From Candidatus Babeliales bacterium (GTDB taxonomy: Bacteria; Babelota; Babeliae; Babelales; JANWKD01), in assembly GCA_963722075.1 (NCBI GenBank), contig CAVRJM010000001.1, positions 1,312,001 to 1,376,000 on the forward strand: 64,000 nucleotides of DNA. The letters are read 5' to 3'. Of the stretch, positions 5,831 to 58,798 are shown one piece after another (position 1 is the first letter of the stretch; every line of letters starts with the position of its first letter). The translations under genes were made by a program, and so were the position numbers. Below the pieces are notes generated by a model that saw nothing but the letters and a program-made list of their open reading frames with translations, had not been told where the DNA came from and searched no databases.

Positions 5831-6055
5831 CTGGATTCTTACGGCCTAAAGCCCTCAGAATAACAGGATTTCTAATGATTGTCATACTAAGGAGCGTATG
5901 CGACGTAAGGATCCAGTGAATAAATAAATCAAACATTTTAATTTTAATTGATCGATTCGTAAACCGTGTCCGCCGAAGCCGATCAAGCGAAGGCTGGGTC
6001 GCAACCGATGGCTTTCGATCTATGTCGTCACGAGCCGAAGGCGTGGTGATCCAGT
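5831..6055. repeat. Cluster of family-1 palindromic repeats (5831-5864, 5881-5917, 6024-6055) plus a family-2 hairpin (5968-5997)
   Basis: GTCRT...ATCCAG units in both orientations. Confidence 0.85.
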
Positions 6056-37383: not shown

Positions 37384-37506
37384 GTCATCACGAGCTTTCC
37401 GTCGTCGCTTTTTACTTTGATAATATCAATTTATCCTTCTTTATAAGCTATGCCGGACAAGGCGTGGGGACTGCGTCCGCCGAAGTTTTAACGAAGGCTG
37501 GATCCA
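37384..37506 (+). repeat. Family-1 repeat carrying two nested family-2 hairpins
   Basis: Closely matches the reverse complement of 58666-58754, with an extra AT-rich insert in one loop. Confidence 0.85.
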
Positions 37507-37527
37507 TTAATAAAATTCATTACCTTA

Positions 37528-42253: not shown

Positions 42254-44707
42254 ATGAAATTTGTAACTTATTTTATATTGTTATTGAGTGTTATTATGGG
42301 GGGTTATTCGAGGCTAAAGGCCATGGAAGCACCTACTGATCATAACGAAGTAGAAATAGTATTTGAGAATAACCAAAAGGGTTATTTTAACAGGCAAATA
42401 TTAGGAATATCTGAAACATTGGCGCAACATCATTTGCCCTATCTTGAACCAGGACAGCAATTATTATTGAATGATTCCAATTGCACCATTTATAAAGAAG
42501 ATTTTGAATCAGTGATATATCCATTAATGCAAGCCGTAAAACAACAAGATATGCAAGAAATACAAGATATTTTAGGAAATTGCGATCTAATCAAAGAATT
42601 TGATAAAAAACATTACAAACAAGTAAAAAAAACCATTAGGTTTTTAGGTATTAAAAATAGAAGAATAAATCAATATAGTAATGGCAAGCGTACATTTGCC
42701 CAAGCATTCATACTGCCAAAAGAAACGGTTTATAAAAAGCAGGTAATAAATAAAGAAGAAACTAAACAATTAGAACAAGCAGAAACTGCATTACCAGTAA
42801 TTAAATTAAAAAAACCGGGTAGCACTACCTTGGGCGCATTAAAAATGACCCCGCAAGCATTGCCTTACTTCTCAACCGTTAGAAAATGGATGGAAGAAAA
42901 AGATTCAGATGCTAAAGCAATTTGCATCTTTGAAGATGATATTTCATTAGAAAATTTAAAAAGAATCAATAAAATTATTCCATTATTTTCTCAAGAAAAA
43001 AGTGAATTAGTTCCTTGTATAGTTAAAATGTTAGATTCTTTCAATTTAAAAAAGAAAGATATTCGTAGTCTTAAAGGTGCTGCCTTCTTCTTAGGATGCG
43101 AGCAATTAGTAAAAGCGTGCCAGAAGGTATTAATAAAAAAAATAATATATAAAAACAGTAAGAAGCATGAAATAAAATTAAAAAATGCTGGAGATGTTAC
43201 CATTGGTATTCTTAAAATGACGCCGGAAGCATTACCCTATTTTCCAGTATTACGAGATATGTTTGCAGTTGATGAGGGCGCGGGGGTACTTTCAGAACAA
43301 CAAATTTCGCTTGAAATAGTGAACTTCTTGAATGAACTGCTTCCCTTATTTTTCCCAAGACCGCTTGAGGAATTAAAAAAAGATATACATCAGATATTGA
43401 AGCGATGGCTAAATAATGATGAAACAATTCAATTGTTAAATGCAGCAAATTTTTTAGGATGTGAACCATTGATGGAATGTTGCTGTACAGTCCTTTCTGA
43501 AAACCTATTGCTATTGAGAAATGCTAATAATAAAGAAGCAATAAGACAAATAATTGACTCATTAAATCTTGATTTGAGGGATTTAGTATGCAGTCAGCTC
43601 GGTCAACGGATTATTGCCATTAAAACTCAATGTATTATACAAAAGGGTCTAAATACTCCTAATTTTTCAGATATTACTATTACAAATGATGGAACATATA
43701 TCGCTGCCTATAGACCTCATGAAATTCATATTATAAACACCAAAAATGGGTGGTCGAACATAATACGTTGTGGTCAAACAGCGGTTGAATTACTATTTTT
43801 AGCCGATGGAACCTTGGTGAGCGAATCTCCCGGTGTAATAAAATATTGGCAAATAGCTGATAGGCTTCCTACAAAAAAGTTTACAAAACCAAAGGGTAGC
43901 TGGTATGGACAATTGTCAGCAAATGATGGGGCTTTTATTATTTTAAAAAATGGTCTCTTAGATTTTTATTATGATAACAATAATTATAAATGTAAATTTT
44001 CTTATGGCGGTAGAATCTTTGATATTTCTTGCGATGAAAAGTTAATAGCTTTTGCGGGATATAAGTATGTAAGAATTGTTAGAAAAGAAGATGACGAATA
44101 TAAAGAATGTAAATTGATTCCATTAGAGGAGGGACATGGTTTTCCCGTCCCTCTATTTTCACCCAGTGGAAAATGGTTAGCTATGTTCGATAGCAAGTTC
44201 GTTGAAGATATCTTTTATATGGTTGATATGGCAACAGAAGAAATAAAATATGCAATTCCTGTTAGAACGATACCTGATGCTCAATTTAAATTTTCATCAG
44301 ATGATAATTTTATAGTTAGATTTTCAACGAATGTATCAGGAGCTCCTATAGAAATCTATGATGTACAAACAGGTGAACGTATTTATACTTTACCAAACCT
44401 TTGTAAACTTCAACATCTTTGTATATCCCCTGATTCAAAATTATTAGTAACGGTATCAGAAAATTTGATTAAGCCTCCTCTGGGTGGTGCTAAACAAGAG
44501 ATAGTTTTTACGAATTTACAAACGGGCAACAGTTTGTCTGAATTTTTTTATCAGCCTCAAGATGACCAGCCCATAGATTGCATTGTTTTTTCACCCGATA
44601 GTAAATCACTTATATTTGGGACAGATACTGTTTATAAAATGGATATAAGGCCAAATTTTAATTCCTTAGAAACAGAAGATATCATCAACGAATTGTTTAA
44701 GAAATAA
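42254..44707 (+). CDS. Secreted Skp1/BTB-like and WD40-repeat protein (duplicated Skp1-like domain)
   Basis: LKGAAFFLGCEQLVKAC and LLNAANFLGCEPLMECC; FSPSGKWLA, ISPDSKLL, FSPDSKSL propeller blades. Confidence 0.75.
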   Translation: MKFVTYFILLLSVIMGGYSRLKAMEAPTDHNEVEIVFENNQKGYFNRQILGISETLAQHHLPYLEPGQQLLLNDSNCTIYKEDFESVIYPLMQAVKQQDMQEIQDILGNCDLIKEFDKKHYKQVKKTIRFLGIKNRRINQYSNGKRTFAQAFILPKETVYKKQVINKEETKQLEQAETALPVIKLKKPGSTTLGALKMTPQALPYFSTVRKWMEEKDSDAKAICIFEDDISLENLKRINKIIPLFSQEKSELVPCIVKMLDSFNLKKKDIRSLKGAAFFLGCEQLVKACQKVLIKKIIYKNSKKHEIKLKNAGDVTIGILKMTPEALPYFPVLRDMFAVDEGAGVLSEQQISLEIVNFLNELLPLFFPRPLEELKKDIHQILKRWLNNDETIQLLNAANFLGCEPLMECCCTVLSENLLLLRNANNKEAIRQIIDSLNLDLRDLVCSQLGQRIIAIKTQCIIQKGLNTPNFSDITITNDGTYIAAYRPHEIHIINTKNGWSNIIRCGQTAVELLFLADGTLVSESPGVIKYWQIADRLPTKKFTKPKGSWYGQLSANDGAFIILKNGLLDFYYDNNNYKCKFSYGGRIFDISCDEKLIAFAGYKYVRIVRKEDDEYKECKLIPLEEGHGFPVPLFSPSGKWLAMFDSKFVEDIFYMVDMATEEIKYAIPVRTIPDAQFKFSSDDNFIVRFSTNVSGAPIEIYDVQTGERIYTLPNLCKLQHLCISPDSKLLVTVSENLIKPPLGGAKQEIVFTNLQTGNSLSEFFYQPQDDQPIDCIVFSPDSKSLIFGTDTVYKMDIRPNFNSLETEDIINELFKK

Positions 44708-44720
44708 ATGGGGCAATAAA

Positions 44721-46865
44721 ATGAAAAAAATTAACCTAGTACTCGCATTATTTGCATGTAATTCGTTGCTTGCCATGGAAGCACCCAGCTCAAATGAATT
44801 AGTAGAAATAGTATTTGAGAATAACCAAAAGGGGCTTTTTAGTAGAGCAGTGTTAGAAGTATCTAAAACGCTGAATGATTATTATTTACCCCATATTTCT
44901 TCAGGACAGCAACTATTATTATGTGGTGGTCTTAATGGTTCTGTTTTTAAAGACGATTTTGAATTATACATATACCCCTTAATGCAAGCCGTATATAATA
45001 ATGACGAAAATGTTATACACGATATTAGATTTAATATTGATATATTATCTATGGATGATTCAGAAAACGGGGATATTAGAAGTAAACGAGTTAATAATGT
45101 CGTCAGATTTTTAGATGTGGGTATCTTCTTAGATGATGAAGAGCAACAAGGAACTAAACGCTCATTTGGTGAGGCTTTTGAAGCAGCGTACAAGTTGCAA
45201 GAGCCCGTTTGCAAAAAAGGTAATTATCAAGGTAGCCAACCCGATTCTCCAATAGCGCCACAACAGGAACCTGGTGATAATGTGGCCATCTTAAAAATAC
45301 CATTACTTAATGAACAAGATGAGCAAATTGATACCCTTGTATTGCCAAAAGAAGTGTTACCATTTTTTTCAGTCTTAAATAATCTACATGAATCATCTAT
45401 TGCAGGGGCCATGGAGCTATTGGAAAAAAATATTTCGCCTTTGATTATCAAAATATTAAACGATCTTACGCCATTATTTTTATTTAAGGTATCAGAAGAT
45501 GACTTAAAAAAAATGATGAATGAAAAATTGAAGTTGATGGGTAATAATCAAGTAGTTCAATTATTAAAAGCGGCGGATTATTTAGGATGCGAACTTCTAA
45601 TGGATGTATGCTTTACCATTTTATCAAACAATATAAGAGCCTGCCAAAATGAAAAAGAAAAAATGATTAAAGAAGTGGTAGGTCCGTTTGATAATAATTT
45701 ACGTAGTATATTATGCGGACATCTGGCTGAAGATGTTGTTTTTACTGTTGAACCCGTGAATATTAATGGGATTGATAAAAACCATCATATTACGAGTATT
45801 GCAACATCTTATGATGGAAATTATATTGCAATATATTCCAATGAAACAAAAAAAATATATATTTTAAATGCTCAAACTAAAAATGTAATTAATACAATAA
45901 ATAGTTCTCAAAAAGATGTTAGTCTACATTTTTTAAGAAATGGCAACTTATTAAGTAAATCTCCTTGTGTTATTAAATATTGGAATATTAATCGAAAAAA
46001 ATCTCTCAATTCAATAAAAATTCCAAATGGAACAGAGATGACAAGGATTTCCCCTGATGGTGAGATTTGTGCGGCAGTGAATGAAATGGGGTATGTACAA
46101 TTATTATCCCAAAACTCTCAAGAAAATGTTTCTTTAGGGAATTTAGTTAACAATGCTCATTGTCGGGGTAAAAATGTCCATGATTTAGTTATTGCTCCTG
46201 ATAACAATGTTATGGCTGTACAACAATGGGCAAAAGTTAATGATGTATTTGTTAGAAAATATAAAGTTATCGATAAACAAAAAAATATAACAAGAACTTG
46301 GAAGATAACAGATGATTCTAGGAATTTTGGAGGGCTTTGTTTTTCGTATAGAGGAAATTTATTGGCATCTTCTTCTTTAAATAATCTTACTATTAAAGAT
46401 TTAAAAAAAGGAAACGATTGGGAGTGCATTTTTCCTTTGGGAGTGCCTGAAGGGAAAATTAAATTTTCACCTGATGATGCTACCGTAATATGCTATAAAT
46501 TAAATAAACCAGCTAATATAGACATATTTAATTTGAGGGATAATTCATCCTTTACGATTAGTGATCCAGCTATTTTACAAGCGATGGCGATTTCTCCGGA
46601 TAGTTCTTTATTGGTATTGGCTTTTAGTTATCCTAGCGTTGGCGATAAACCCTGGCAATCAATAGAACTTTATAGTTTAAAGAGGAAAGAAGCTGTTTAT
46701 AAAGATGTAGTGAAATGCGATTATTTAATTGAAGAGCTTACCTTTTTACCAGATGGCAAATCGCTTATTTGCGGGTCTGATAAATTATATTTTATTAATA
46801 TAAAAAAAACAGATTTTGATTTTTTAGAAACAGAGGATGTTGTAGAGCAGCAATTATTTAATTAA
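44721..46865 (+). CDS. Secreted Skp1/BTB-like and WD40-repeat protein
   Basis: LLKAADYLGCELLMDVC; SYDGNYIA, ISPDGE, FSPDD, FLPDGKSL. Confidence 0.75.
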   Translation: MKKINLVLALFACNSLLAMEAPSSNELVEIVFENNQKGLFSRAVLEVSKTLNDYYLPHISSGQQLLLCGGLNGSVFKDDFELYIYPLMQAVYNNDENVIHDIRFNIDILSMDDSENGDIRSKRVNNVVRFLDVGIFLDDEEQQGTKRSFGEAFEAAYKLQEPVCKKGNYQGSQPDSPIAPQQEPGDNVAILKIPLLNEQDEQIDTLVLPKEVLPFFSVLNNLHESSIAGAMELLEKNISPLIIKILNDLTPLFLFKVSEDDLKKMMNEKLKLMGNNQVVQLLKAADYLGCELLMDVCFTILSNNIRACQNEKEKMIKEVVGPFDNNLRSILCGHLAEDVVFTVEPVNINGIDKNHHITSIATSYDGNYIAIYSNETKKIYILNAQTKNVINTINSSQKDVSLHFLRNGNLLSKSPCVIKYWNINRKKSLNSIKIPNGTEMTRISPDGEICAAVNEMGYVQLLSQNSQENVSLGNLVNNAHCRGKNVHDLVIAPDNNVMAVQQWAKVNDVFVRKYKVIDKQKNITRTWKITDDSRNFGGLCFSYRGNLLASSSLNNLTIKDLKKGNDWECIFPLGVPEGKIKFSPDDATVICYKLNKPANIDIFNLRDNSSFTISDPAILQAMAISPDSSLLVLAFSYPSVGDKPWQSIELYSLKRKEAVYKDVVKCDYLIEELTFLPDGKSLICGSDKLYFINIKKTDFDFLETEDVVEQQLFN

Positions 46866-46879
46866 TAAATGGGGAATAT

Positions 46880-48040
46880 ATGAAAATAGTTACCATACTA
46901 GGAGCTTTATTAATTGGCAATTCGTTAATTGCCATGGAAGCTCCTATTAACCATAAAGAATTAATAGAAGTACTATTTGAAGATAATGAAAATGGAATAT
47001 TTGATAAAGCGGTGTTGGAAATATCACCAACATTAAGAAGTAGGTCGTCACGTTTATCACCAGGAAGCCCATTAGGAATAGATGGTAAAAAACGTTACGG
47101 GATAAATAAAGAAGATTTCGAAGAATTCATTTATCCTTTAATGCAGGCTTTATATGAAAAACGATCTACAGAATATTTTCAACCTAATCTTGATAGGCTT
47201 GCTCGAAGTGATGGGTATGGATATTCGAGAGCATGGAGCATTTATCATGCAATTAACCATTTGCAACTGCAAAACCGTACTACTTTATTACAGCCACCAG
47301 ATCCGCTGTATAATAAAAGACCACTTGAGATGGCATCTAAAAAGATTTTTGAGCCTCGTAAGCTTTCCACTAAAAAAAATAGTTCTACTGATGAAGAAGA
47401 AAAATTCTTAGCATGGTTGCAAGATCAGAAAGATGATGATTTATTAACTGGATTGCTTTCTGATGTACAAGACAACATGAAGAATGTAGGCAATCAAAAT
47501 GGGAAAGCTATTGACCAAGGTGATTCCCCTGTAGATTTTAATGGATATGATTTGGTAAATAAAAATAACGTTGTAGATCAAAATATCTTGGAACAAGAAA
47601 TAAGAATACCAGTGGCGGACGAGGAAGGAAGACAAGTAGGTATGCTTAATATACCAAAATATTTGCTACCATATTTTGAGCAATTATATAATCAAATCGG
47701 TATTAATGAGACATGGGAAACGGCGCCATTAATAGATACACTAGTTTCCGCTTCGATCATTCCCTTATTGAATACTCTTTTTCCGTTGATGAGTGGAAGT
47801 GATCAATCCATAATAAAAAATATACAAGATAAGCTAGAAAATGAATCAAATGATACGCTCGTCGCATTATTGATAGCAGTAGATTTTCTTGGCGGTGAGC
47901 TTATAACTGAGGCGAGTTTAATAATATTAGCCAAAAAAATAACTCTATTAAAAGAAATAGGTAACACGAAGGAAATAGAAAGGTTAATAGATAACTTACC
48001 AATACATTTATGCAGATCATTACCAGCATATTTCGCCTGA
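46880..48040 (+). CDS. Secreted Skp1/BTB-like paralog lacking the WD40 region
   Basis: Shared AMEAP...EVLFEDN...IYPLMQA N-terminus; LLIAVDFLGGELI. Confidence 0.72.
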   Translation: MKIVTILGALLIGNSLIAMEAPINHKELIEVLFEDNENGIFDKAVLEISPTLRSRSSRLSPGSPLGIDGKKRYGINKEDFEEFIYPLMQALYEKRSTEYFQPNLDRLARSDGYGYSRAWSIYHAINHLQLQNRTTLLQPPDPLYNKRPLEMASKKIFEPRKLSTKKNSSTDEEEKFLAWLQDQKDDDLLTGLLSDVQDNMKNVGNQNGKAIDQGDSPVDFNGYDLVNKNNVVDQNILEQEIRIPVADEEGRQVGMLNIPKYLLPYFEQLYNQIGINETWETAPLIDTLVSASIIPLLNTLFPLMSGSDQSIIKNIQDKLENESNDTLVALLIAVDFLGGELITEASLIILAKKITLLKEIGNTKEIERLIDNLPIHLCRSLPAYFA

Positions 48041-48587: not shown

Positions 48588-49289
48588 TTACCAATGCATG
48601 AGCGTGCCATCATAGCGATAAAAAAGCTGTTCTAGTGAACGCGGTGCATTTATAATAACCTTTTTCATGCCCAAAACGCTGGTGGTAGTATCAATTTCAG
48701 CATGCGGGCCTCCCATAGCAGTTCTTACATGCCCCGGATGCAACAAAAGTACTTTAACATTTTGATCATACGTATCAATGGCAATGCTTGCCATAATACT
48801 ATTAAGCGCTGCTTTGCTGGCGCGATAGGCATATGCATCTTCGATGGAAGCGTGTTCTTTAAGAATATAGGAAATGCTACCCATGCGGCTTGAAATTGAA
48901 ACAATTGTTTTTAAGTTGCTTTTTATAACGTTATTTAAAAAATATTTCGTTACTAATAAAGGGCCAACTGCATTTACCGTAAATACGTTGATCATCATTT
49001 CTTTGGTAATGGTAGCCAGTTCTTGGTCTCGTCCAAAAATGCCGGCATTATTAATAAGAATGTCGATCGGTTCGGTTTTTAATTGATTAGCAAGAATAGA
49101 TAATTGATTCTCATCAGTGACATCCAAGGGAAGGAGTACGATATTATTATGGCGGTAAGCGAGTGATTGCAATTCTTCTAAAGGGCCATGTGGATAATAG
49201 GTAGCAAATAGTTTGTAAGAATCTGGCGCATACTGCTTTACAAATTCTAATCCGATGCCGCTATTGGTTCCTGTTATAAATACATTCAT
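48588..49289 (-). CDS. Short-chain dehydrogenase (C-factor/CsgA-like SDR)
   Basis: TGTNSGIG, INNAG, SSRMGS, YRASK, HPGHVRT.MGG. Confidence 0.92.
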   Translation of the reverse strand: MNVFITGTNSGIGLEFVKQYAPDSYKLFATYYPHGPLEELQSLAYRHNNIVLLPLDVTDENQLSILANQLKTEPIDILINNAGIFGRDQELATITKEMMINVFTVNAVGPLLVTKYFLNNVIKSNLKTIVSISSRMGSISYILKEHASIEDAYAYRASKAALNSIMASIAIDTYDQNVKVLLLHPGHVRTAMGGPHAEIDTTTSVLGMKKVIINAPRSLEQLFYRYDGTLMHW

Positions 49290-49422
49290 ATTTTTATACT
49301 CAATAGTTAATTTTAATCACTATATAAAATGAAATGATGAGTGCGCAATATTAAAATTGATTGTATTATTTAAAAATGTAAATTGTTGTAGAATTTATAC
49401 TCAAAGTTTATGAAAGAATGCA

Positions 49423-49523
49423 GGATCACCATGGTCCGTCTATGTTAAAACTTCGCCGGACAGGCGCTTGCTATTACGGAATCCGTCGTAGCCTTGGCGA
49501 AGTCGGACGCGCTTCTCGTGACG
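49423..49523 (-). repeat. Family-1 repeat carrying two nested family-2 hairpins
   Basis: Internal segment closely matches the reverse complement of 53261-53337. Confidence 0.85.
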
Positions 49524-49539
49524 TCGAAAGTCGAAAGTC

Positions 49540-49895
49540 GTCGTTGCGAGCTTGCGAAGCAATCCAGGTTATAATAATTAGATAAGAAACATATGAAACG
49601 CCCTGCTGTTTATTCTTTATGGCAAATAAAAAAAATGGAACCCTTTACACCTGAGTAACAGGAAATATAATTCAGCGAATTTTTCAACATAAAAATAATA
49701 AAGTCGAATTTACTAGCAAATATAATTGTAAAATGCTTGAGTATGTTGAATTTTTTGGTGAAATGCAAACTGCTGTTATGCAAGAAAAACAAATAAAGGC
49801 TGGCTCTCGTTCAAAAAAGCTAATACTTATTGAATCGGCAAATCCAATGAGAGATTTGTAAATTGCCTGGATTGCTTCGACAAGCTCGCAACGAC
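49540..49895. mobile_element. Candidate element: inverted family-1 repeats (49540-49568, 49866-49895) enclosing a GIY-YIG nuclease gene
   Basis: GTCGTTGCGAGCTTGCGAAGCAATCCAGG ... CCTGGATTGCTTCGACAAGCTCGCAACGAC directly flank the gene. Confidence 0.65.
49593..49861 (+). pseudogene. Stand-alone GIY-YIG nuclease pseudogene
   Basis: Manual translation MKRPAVY/frameshift/MANKKNGTLYT*VTGNIIQRIFQHKNNKVEFTSKYNCKMLEYVEFFGEMQTAVMQEKQIKAGSRSKKLILIESANPMRDL; frameshift near 49614-49618, TGA at 49652. Confidence 0.88.
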
Positions 49896-50041
49896 AACTT
49901 CTTCTAAATACATGTATTTTAATACTTTGAGTTAATTGTATAATTCTTCAAAGACTTGGTATACCTAGTTAGTCTATCAATATCGTATGCACATTATATG
50001 AAATATACACGTTATTCAAGCGTTTTCTGGAACTTACCTTA

Positions 50042-50701
50042 TTATAATAAATTTTTTAAATCTAATTCTGCATATGAATCAATAATTAAATCAGATTCCT
50101 GTACATATTCTCGATTTTTACTGGAATTAATACCAATACAAAACATGCCAGCTCCTTGTGCCGCTTTAATGCCATGCGCAGAATCCTCAATAGCAATACA
50201 TTCTTGGGGATCGATGCCTAATTTTTCTGCTGCATAGAGGTAGATGGCTGGATCTGGTTTGCATTTATTATTCACGTGTGAAATGCCGTAAATATGTTCT
50301 CCAAAATAGTGCTCTAATTGGAGTGCTTGTTTAGTAACCAGCACGGTAGCATCATCAGCGTTAGTGGCAACGCCATTTTTAAGATTATGTTGTACTACTT
50401 TTTTATGAAACTCCAAAAAGCCATCAATAAATTTTACCTGTTTTTTGTATAATTTAACGGCGTTATTTGATTTTTCTTGTACTAATTCTTTAATTGGCTC
50501 TTGCAAATTAAAGGTGTTTTTAATGATGGTGCACGTTTCGTGGAGTGCAAGTCCACGTATTTGGCGTTGTAATGGGCAATTGTCACCGGGCTGATATTGG
50601 ATGCCGCGCGCGGTAATTAAATCAAGGGTTGCTTGACGCCAAATGTCTTCGGTATCGATAATGGTACCGTCCATGTCAAAAATAATTGCTTTATATTTCA
50701 T
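50042..50701 (-). CDS. HAD-family phosphatase (beta-PGM/CbbY-like)
   Basis: FDMDGT, ATN, KPDPAIY, IEDS..GI.AA. Confidence 0.92.
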   Translation of the reverse strand: MKYKAIIFDMDGTIIDTEDIWRQATLDLITARGIQYQPGDNCPLQRQIRGLALHETCTIIKNTFNLQEPIKELVQEKSNNAVKLYKKQVKFIDGFLEFHKKVVQHNLKNGVATNADDATVLVTKQALQLEHYFGEHIYGISHVNNKCKPDPAIYLYAAEKLGIDPQECIAIEDSAHGIKAAQGAGMFCIGINSSKNREYVQESDLIIDSYAELDLKNLL

Positions 50702-53165: not shown

Positions 53166-53346
53166 GTCATCCTGAGCGTAGCGCGGGAATCCAGAAAATC
53201 CTTGTCGTTGCGAGCTTGTCGAAGCAATCCAGTAGTAAAATATATCATTGTCATTCCGAGTGCGTCCGACTTCGCCAAGGCTTCGCCGGATTCCGTCAAT
53301 AGGCGCGCCTGTCCGGCGTAGTTTTAACGTAGACGGATGGGAATCC
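53166..53346 (+). repeat. Three tandem family-1 repeats (53166-53194, 53204-53233, 53250-53346), the last with two nested family-2 hairpins
   Basis: GTCRT...ATCCA units. Confidence 0.9.
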
Positions 53347-54499: not shown

Positions 54500-54593
54500 G
54501 TCATCTTGAGGAGCCTAGCGACGTAAAGATCCAGTAATAAAATAAGAAAAATAATATAACTGGATTCTCACGGCCTAAAGGCCTCAGAATGAC
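54500..54593. repeat. Inverted pair of family-1 repeats
   Basis: 54500-54535 (+) and 54559-54593 (-). Confidence 0.9.
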
Positions 54594-58617: not shown

Positions 58618-58665
58618 TTTTTTTGTAACTTTCTTAAATCAATACAGTATGAATGATCTTATTAA

Positions 58666-58798
58666 TGGATCCAGCCTTCGTTGAAACTTCGGCGGACACA
58701 GTGCCCACGCCTTGTCCGCCATAGCCTTGGCGACGGCGGAAAGCTCGCCATGACGACTGTGATTCCTATTGTCATTCCGAACGAAGTGTGGGAATTCA
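58666..58798. repeat. Nested family-1/family-2 composite (58666-58754, minus) plus a family-1 unit (58771-58798, plus)
   Basis: Reverse complement matches 37384-37506. Confidence 0.88.

Follow-up and report, generated by a model that had tools for sequence, protein, structure and literature searches.

The locus examined here raises the question of how a small nuclease gene comes to lie between two inverted copies of a dispersed repeat, and of whether the enzyme is what spreads that repeat. The preliminary description of the window (the whole stretch of 64,000 nucleotides analysed, from a genome designated G000) had reported at this place a stand-alone GIY-YIG gene, tightly bracketed by repeats and decayed, and had suggested that its product serves the hairpins as a RAYT transposase serves REP sequences. 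The features on which this proposal was built are clearly present. Specifically, three-frame translation yields MKRPAVY in one frame and MANKKNGTLYT, a stop and VTG...MRDL in another; the ATG at 49593 lies 24 nt past the left repeat, the stop codon ends at 49861 and the right repeat follows 4 nt on. The two flanking repeats are inverted and nearly identical (94% identity over 35 nt). When the read-through, with X at the stop, was searched against PF01541, it scored above the cut-off (E=1e-6). By comparison with an intact paralog of the same genome, the window copy carries a 2-nt insertion following the AVY codons (about 49614), a TGA (49652-49654) in place of the motif Gly and a loss of about 24 nt at the 3' end, which takes the C-terminal Trp; Y6, Y17 and E64 are retained although the gene is broken. 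What lies here is thus an Ssn cassette in decay, with the GIY-YIG gene set between a hairpin and its inverted counterpart (see below), and the window's own nuclease copy is dead.

Coordinates of the cassette in the window, of the elements around it and of the two other Ssn paralogs of the genome.
Feature	Position	Strand	Remarks
ssn pseudogene (GIY-YIG, SsnA-type)	window 49593..49861	+	2-nt frameshift near 49614; TGA 49652-49654; C-terminal deletion
Left CGTC-tagged bulged hairpin repeat (SRM-like)	window 49539..49568	+	tag faces away from the pseudogene
Right TGTC-tagged bulged hairpin repeat	window 49866..49896	-	tag faces away from the pseudogene
Degenerate CGTC-type repeat, different stem variant	window 49421..49523	-	head-to-head with the left repeat
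'Type B' hairpin pair, unrelated family	window 49435..49508	.	in the loop of the degenerate repeat 49421..49523
Right outer extension, with homology to a MITE-like element end	window 49897..49968	-	CTCAA motif 49924-49932; degenerate terminal repeat near 49960-49968
Left outer extension remnant	window 49375..49420	+	CTCAA motif 49397-49406; terminal repeat unrecognisable
Intact Ssn paralog	G000:C1:1398408-1398695		96 aa; Y6, Y17 and E64 all kept
Third Ssn paralog	G000:C1:140112-140399		open frame; second motif Tyr changed to Asp, and Gly to Arg

A contig from a public sequencing run reproduces window positions 49542-49764 with zero differences; this run is possibly the source sample, hence the agreement is not independent. 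Among the public-run contigs over the window region we observed neither an empty nor an intact allele, and the sole joint encountered most probably belongs to a further copy of the repeat; none of the sequencing runs listed for the region was an RNA run. An Rfam scan of 49300-50050 gave no score near a gathering threshold, and a scan of the region for promoters and terminators gave matches at chance level only.

In G000, PF01541 has eight matches, namely three close paralogs, one long ORF labelled UvrC-like by eye and four genes of another subfamily. As tblastn query we used the 94-aa SsnA orthologue of N. gonorrhoeae, whose identity is confirmed by the occurrence of both published ssnA qPCR primers (PMC11893778) in its locus. 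The window copy was matched at E=1e-17 over 85/94 aa and the other two copies at E=5e-25 and 3e-24, and the remaining GIY-YIG genes of G000 gave no match at E<=1. The paralogs are 44-51% identical to the Neisseria orthologue and all three match at E<1e-10 over >75% of the SsnA length, the test used here for Ssn membership. Judged by its sequence, the window protein is an Ssn family nuclease of the SsnA type. Because the three paralogs match Neisseria SsnA inside the criterion of PMC11893778 itself, the proposal of a nuclease paired with the hairpins is a rediscovery of the published Ssn/SRM system. An NCBIfam search of the protein returned no family, a PDB sequence search only 1zg2 (E=0.005), and a search for the Neisseria ssnA primers in metagenome contigs no match; a single-sequence AlphaFold model of the intact copy (pLDDT 63) was set aside.

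Chenal et al. 2025 (PMC11893778) describe SsnA as a 94-aa GIY-YIG protein that is specific for single-stranded DNA in both binding and cutting, the cut being placed a few bases to the 5' side of a CGTC-tagged hairpin. The Neisseria enzyme frees a 20-nt piece of the test oligo, that is, cuts 4 nt 5' of the CGTC tag, and cutting of single-stranded DNA beside the hairpin is demonstrated for four homologues, 42% of Ssn homologues being hairpin-flanked on both sides. Their Discussion already contains the IS-like NTS-ssnA-NTS layout and a 'selfish, domesticated' hypothesis, the RAYT/REP analogy is drawn as well, and the question of past or present mobility of NTS-ssnA-NTS is left undecided. In that study each genome was scored for its single best homologue; the one Babela row found in its table has zero counts and no ssnA, and a search of the main text for paralog, bulge, tRNA and Di Nocera gave no occurrence. 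Our literature search, which left subscription journals mostly outside, retrieved no other paper on Ssn and none showing Ssn mobility.

The system of G000 resembles published Ssn and its NTS/SRM hairpins (SsnA, CDD cd10448) in its single-domain GIY-YIG protein (96 aa here, with Tyr/Tyr/Glu kept in the intact copy), in the placement of the gene between inverted CGTC-tagged hairpins and in the hundreds of hairpins found elsewhere. It differs in that the hairpin, with its short basal stem, GA/GWR internal loop and variable upper stem, is missed by the SRM pattern, that the tags point outward, that three copies per genome occupy unrelated sites and that the cassettes are nested with two other repeat families. 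What is added here is this undescribed bulged hairpin variant, together with comparative evidence on cassette movement: one clade of paralogous cassettes, diverged under purifying selection, at sites empty in the closest relative. Also added are the repeats' tracking of the nuclease, with one exception, and not of IS200 TnpA, and the nesting of the cassette with two other repeat families, among them a MITE-like end that offers a rival carrier.

A stem-checked search of contig C1 returned 217 copies of the bulged hairpin repeat, compared to 2-3 in each of three Markov-3 simulations. Each is built from a CGTC/TGTC tag, a 5-bp basal stem, a purine-rich internal loop (GA/GWR), a variable upper stem and a CCA tail. 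The three variable basal-stem pairs covary, being Watson-Crick in 217/243 basal 3-bp stems, and define at least ten stem variants. Dispersal of the repeat, in about ten clusters in the window, is as originally described; what had been taken for one and the same repeat is in truth a family of stem variants, and the gene-less pair at 54500-54593, presented as the gene-flanking repeat, carries other variants. Nor are the copies at the gene good palindromes: their folding does not surpass that of shuffled sequence (z about 0), and they have a short covarying basal stem with an internal loop. The stem variant that flanks the gene (the cognate variant) is present in about 80 copies in the genome; the remainder, roughly two thirds of the 217, belong to stem variants for which G000 has no matching gene. 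All but 14 of 231 repeats are intergenic, those 14 lying inside ORFs. The published degenerate SRM search pattern has 2 matches on C1, against the 217 bulged repeats; the left window repeat needs 4 substitutions to fit it, and the right one is unmatched even with 4. Because this pattern is a search tool built from 29 genomes (PMC11893778), we assign the protein to Ssn and call the repeat SRM-like, a variant and not a strict SRM.

A further family to be compared is that of the CGTC-tagged REPs of Di Nocera, De Gregorio and Rocco 2013 (PMC3733652), whose families 1-4 have 8-9 bp stems and 4-5 nt loops; no dedicated transposase was reported for them, and their spreader is left open. The CGTC/TGTC tag, AT at the stem base, the CCA tail, the head-to-head and tail-to-tail dimers and the intergenic location are common to both, whereas the 5-bp basal stem, the internal loop and the variable upper stem set the repeats of G000 apart from that description. 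Tail-to-tail dimers, rare there, are common here (44, against 31 head-to-head), and here a GIY-YIG gene is the partner. In 26/31 head-to-head dimers the spacer measures 9-21 nt, and such tight spacers look as though a new copy were inserted immediately 5' of a tag already in place.

In G000, all three paralogs are bracketed by one common repeat variant with tags outward, and a strict repeat pattern brackets (within 100 nt) only an ssn copy among 1247 ORFs. Enrichment at homologous genes is evident in the best 80 of 151 homologous Ssn loci, which come from many phyla: in this set 28/80 have repeats on both sides, tags out, and 54/80 on at least one side, with distal controls at 2/74 and 2/72. 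The nearest repeats are oriented tags-out at 26 of these loci and tags-in at 6, while 12/80 have no repeat within 160 nt; the published SRM pattern matches at 2/80. In Neisseria, the nearest hairpins point the opposite way. Direct duplications of at least 60 nt flank 32/77 homologous loci compared to 0/62 distal controls, and five of the six inspected proved to be dimers of the repeat, a result that could arise from clustering by itself.

Among 41 related genomes, seven are repeat-rich (at least 6 bulged repeats), and the proposed tracking of repeat number with the nuclease is seen in six of these, which have an Ssn match at E<1e-15, but not in G006, with 17 repeats and no Ssn match. One of the six, G021, has only a divergent ORF and fragments, one fragment being repeat-flanked. 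Four further genomes carry Ssn genes beside perfect-stem hairpins, which fall outside the counts of the bulged-repeat pattern. The 41 genomes are kin and not independent, so that the counts are descriptive.

These data also bear on the explanation by which the repeats owe their spread to a RAYT or IS200 TnpA, two of them having come to enclose the GIY-YIG gene accidentally. G000 does have one Y1 transposase, as do 5/7 repeat-rich genomes in total; this sole Y1 gene, however, sits 4.7 kb from the nearest repeat, with hairpins of its own, and Y1 transposases are present in 15/34 repeat-poor genomes and missing from 2/7 repeat-rich ones. In addition, the bracketing of GIY-YIG genes recurs across many phyla, and no CGTC-flanked tyrosine transposase was found in PMC3733652. 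This explanation is largely refuted, and we regard it as very improbable indeed. IS200 TnpA is not the partner of the repeat, and the preliminary description was right in part about the GIY-YIG enzyme as a RAYT-like hairpin factor: the dedicated repeat partner is there, but the interiors of gene-less pairs are not detectably gene-derived and some lie inside a MITE-like element.

We then compared the cassette sites between relatives. The three Ssn cassettes of G000 lie at unrelated sites, all of which are without a cassette in the same-genus genome G001. At the window's site, between HAD and VKOR genes, these two genes are about 45 bp apart in G001, with no cassette and also without the short-chain dehydrogenase (SDR) gene. 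The ligase-tmk site is a 92-bp gap without a repeat in G001, holds one repeat in G003 and a repeat pair in G004, and at the nusB site G001 has other genes in place of the cassette. Conversely, the close cassettes of G001, G003, G004 and G038 are repeat-flanked in 9/9 cases, each in a different neighbourhood, and one of these sites is a bare 41-bp gap in G000 and another a gene-less pair. Left and right ends within a cassette are usually of a common stem variant, two of the nine relatives' cassettes have 56-58 nt ends that are 98% identical, the ends are mosaic among copies, and no fixed-length duplication was seen. All together, the Ssn cassette unit has likely spread as selfish DNA; the evidence is comparative, and no movement as such was observed.

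In a quick tree (91 columns, 53/95 branches open), the three paralogs form one clade (SH-aLRT 99). They diverge by dS about 1 with dN/dS 0.12-0.14, their flanking repeats meanwhile being nearly identical. On these estimates, the three cassettes appear to be old duplicates, long under purifying selection, of which the window copy was recently broken. The same tree was considered as a link between hairpin type and Ssn clade, perfect-stem loci grouping with Neisseria (support 82), and was found too weak for this.

The explanation we favour, and hold to be somewhat better than an even chance, is that the window carries the decayed copy of a cassette whose intact enzyme nicks single-stranded DNA outside the tag, so that repair of the nick multiplies hairpins and occasionally copies the whole cassette. 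The intact enzyme would recognise the bulged hairpin and nick single-stranded DNA just outside its tag; with tags outward, two nicks would fall outside both ends of the cassette, on opposite strands. Repair of a nick by template switching between hairpin copies would raise the number of hairpins and, from time to time, carry a copy of the entire cassette to a new site. Such spread would be a homing-like copying through repair, in preference to cut-and-paste, because rejoining of DNA by a hydrolytic GIY-YIG enzyme is not known, and nick-primed template switching is our best guess for movement by a hydrolytic nicking enzyme. The tight head-to-head spacers, the mosaic ends and the variable direct duplications suggest copying by repair and template switching at nicks, not precise excision. 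Against spread by nicking and copying stand the repeats of G006 that lack Ssn, the two thirds of repeats without a matching gene, the 12 repeat-free loci among the best 80 of 151 and the reversed hairpins of Neisseria.

In having an enzyme gene flanked by its own hairpins, many gene-less pairs and recognition of single-stranded hairpin DNA, this scheme parallels the REPtron (RAYT, HUH, IS200/IS605-type, with GTAG REPs/REPINs), from which it differs in fold, chemistry and tag; no HUH/Y1 gene is flanked by the repeats here. HUH enzymes form a covalent tyrosine link and can rejoin DNA, whereas GIY-YIG enzymes hydrolyse it, and HUH peel-and-paste entails cuts on the same strand, unlike the opposite-strand nicks proposed for Ssn. 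Free-standing GIY-YIG homing endonucleases (T4 Seg family) are likewise small genes that would spread by break-and-repair copying; these cut double-stranded sites lacking the gene, have extra DNA-binding domains and have no dispersed hairpin family. A bolder version, which we put forward tentatively and would not call probable, takes hairpin-ssn-hairpin, about 360 bp in length, as an autonomous mobile element needing only a hydrolytic single-strand nickase and host repair, with no transposase or recombinase. It would supply the mobiliser so far missing for CGTC-tagged REPs; every paralog would drive a stem variant of its own, and a new hairpin would be placed where the nick is made, immediately 5' of an older one.

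A different origin of the spread may be considered in view of what lies outside and between the hairpins. Cognate repeats form 24 adjacent tags-out pairs: the gene lies in 3, a further 2 are >800 nt long, and the other 19 enclose AT-rich interiors of 47-257 nt. These 19 interiors show no significant likeness to the gene (lowest empirical p 0.02-0.04, in 3/19, uncorrected). Gene-less pairs as deletion derivatives of the gene, which a classical IS/MITE pair would have, along with fixed ends and a target duplication, are not supported by this comparison. Cognate heads often have an outer extension of 30-95 nt ending in a terminal-repeat motif; a CTCAA motif occurs at 26/83 cognate heads compared to 5/140 heads of other variants and 3.8% of random windows. 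It could be supposed that hairpins and cassettes are passengers of a DDE-type transposase acting on this MITE-like terminal repeat, or of ordinary repeat recombination, with Ssn binding or cutting the hairpin without causing its spread. Six gene-less pairs do have mutually homologous interiors (71-85%), with homology running 40-95 nt past the hairpin heads; the terminal repeat bounds elements of 160-410 bp in G000, G001 and G015 and occurs in 7/41 genomes; the right flank of the window cassette aligns with the end of such an element; and G000 has 15 DDE_Tnp_1 matches. The terminal repeat is nevertheless found on just 13/83 cognate heads and one end of the intact cassette, and is absent around 9/9 cassettes of G001, G003, G004 and G038, 4/4 others of the order and 80/80 distant loci (the best 80 of 151). 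We found no intact transposase that has this repeat, and a search for the repeat in viral contigs gave 6 loci, none with a transposase, which we read as chance; a decayed fragment beside the terminal repeat in G019 resembles, by eye, an IS5-family transposase. Such hitch-hiking, moreover, leaves the tracking between repeats and Ssn unexplained. We consider it unlikely as the main explanation: since the terminal repeat is missing from the relatives' cassettes and the distant loci, it doesn't explain the general pattern. Part of the spread in G000 may nonetheless be hitch-hiking in a MITE, because cognate heads and the window flank carry MITE-like ends.

Some observations on these elements may be added. 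MITE-like elements lie at G000:C1:149747-150147 and 1377448-1377860 (with L233, L237 and L238), and the family holds different hairpin repeats inside in different genomes. Seven of the DDE_Tnp_1 matches have identical scores (G000:C1:143790 and six other places) and are likely one recently active IS.

The purifying selection on the paralogs is compatible with a host function too, and a host could keep Ssn to cut incoming or exposed hairpin-bearing single-stranded DNA, tuning recombination as in Neisseria, extra copies being decaying by-products. This role is demonstrated in N. meningitidis (PMC11893778), and it would fit a genome in which one copy is intact at the above dN/dS and two of three are damaged. 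It is less easily reconciled with the patchy distribution, with several separate Ssn lineages in one order and with the lack of a conserved locus across 12 cassettes. As an account of the pattern described here we judge it improbable, though it can coexist with spread by nicking and copying.

The type B hairpins form a second family, lodged in CGTC repeat loops in 28 cases, which cover 8 of the stem variants. In the window they lie at 49435-49508, 53265-53337, 37447-37516, 58656-58740 and about 5960-6010, and the first of these is matched 27 times in the genome. Another stand-alone GIY-YIG family stands directly behind tRNA genes in 3/4 G000 copies (L002, L003 and L004, at G000:C1:371244, 1122058 and 1112723; L008), and a tRNA or tmRNA gene is upstream in 51 of the 57 homologous loci scanned (57 of 80; L141-L220). 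The type B motif, located between the tRNA genes and this second family, is upstream at 61/72 loci, compared to 2/63 downstream and 1/80 Ssn loci (the best 80 of 151). CGTC and type B are, in this respect, two nuclease-linked repeat families, nested one in the other; a literature search on the tRNA-linked family found no paper.

This group of genomes offers matched material on mobility, with several cassettes per genome, empty orthologous sites, and an intact enzyme with its own hairpin variant in about 80 cognate gene-less copies. In addition, as the published SRM pattern misses a large bulged-hairpin branch, Ssn/hairpin pairs are undercounted, and such pairs are candidate tools for cutting single-stranded DNA with new specificities.

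Finally, three minor observations concern the records and the neighbourhood. The 2.17-Mb Neisseria gonorrhoeae record L140 (NZ_CP119140.1) is filed as a plasmid and looks like a chromosome. The SDR gene (window 48588-49289, minus strand) separates the cassette from the VKOR gene; searched in four relatives, in which the HAD and VKOR genes can adjoin, it gave no match at E<=1e-20. Elsewhere, window 42254-48040 (plus strand) holds three tandem paralogous ORFs (817, 714 and 386 aa) with signal-like N-termini and a common MEAP start, the first two of which end, by eye, in propeller-like repeats.
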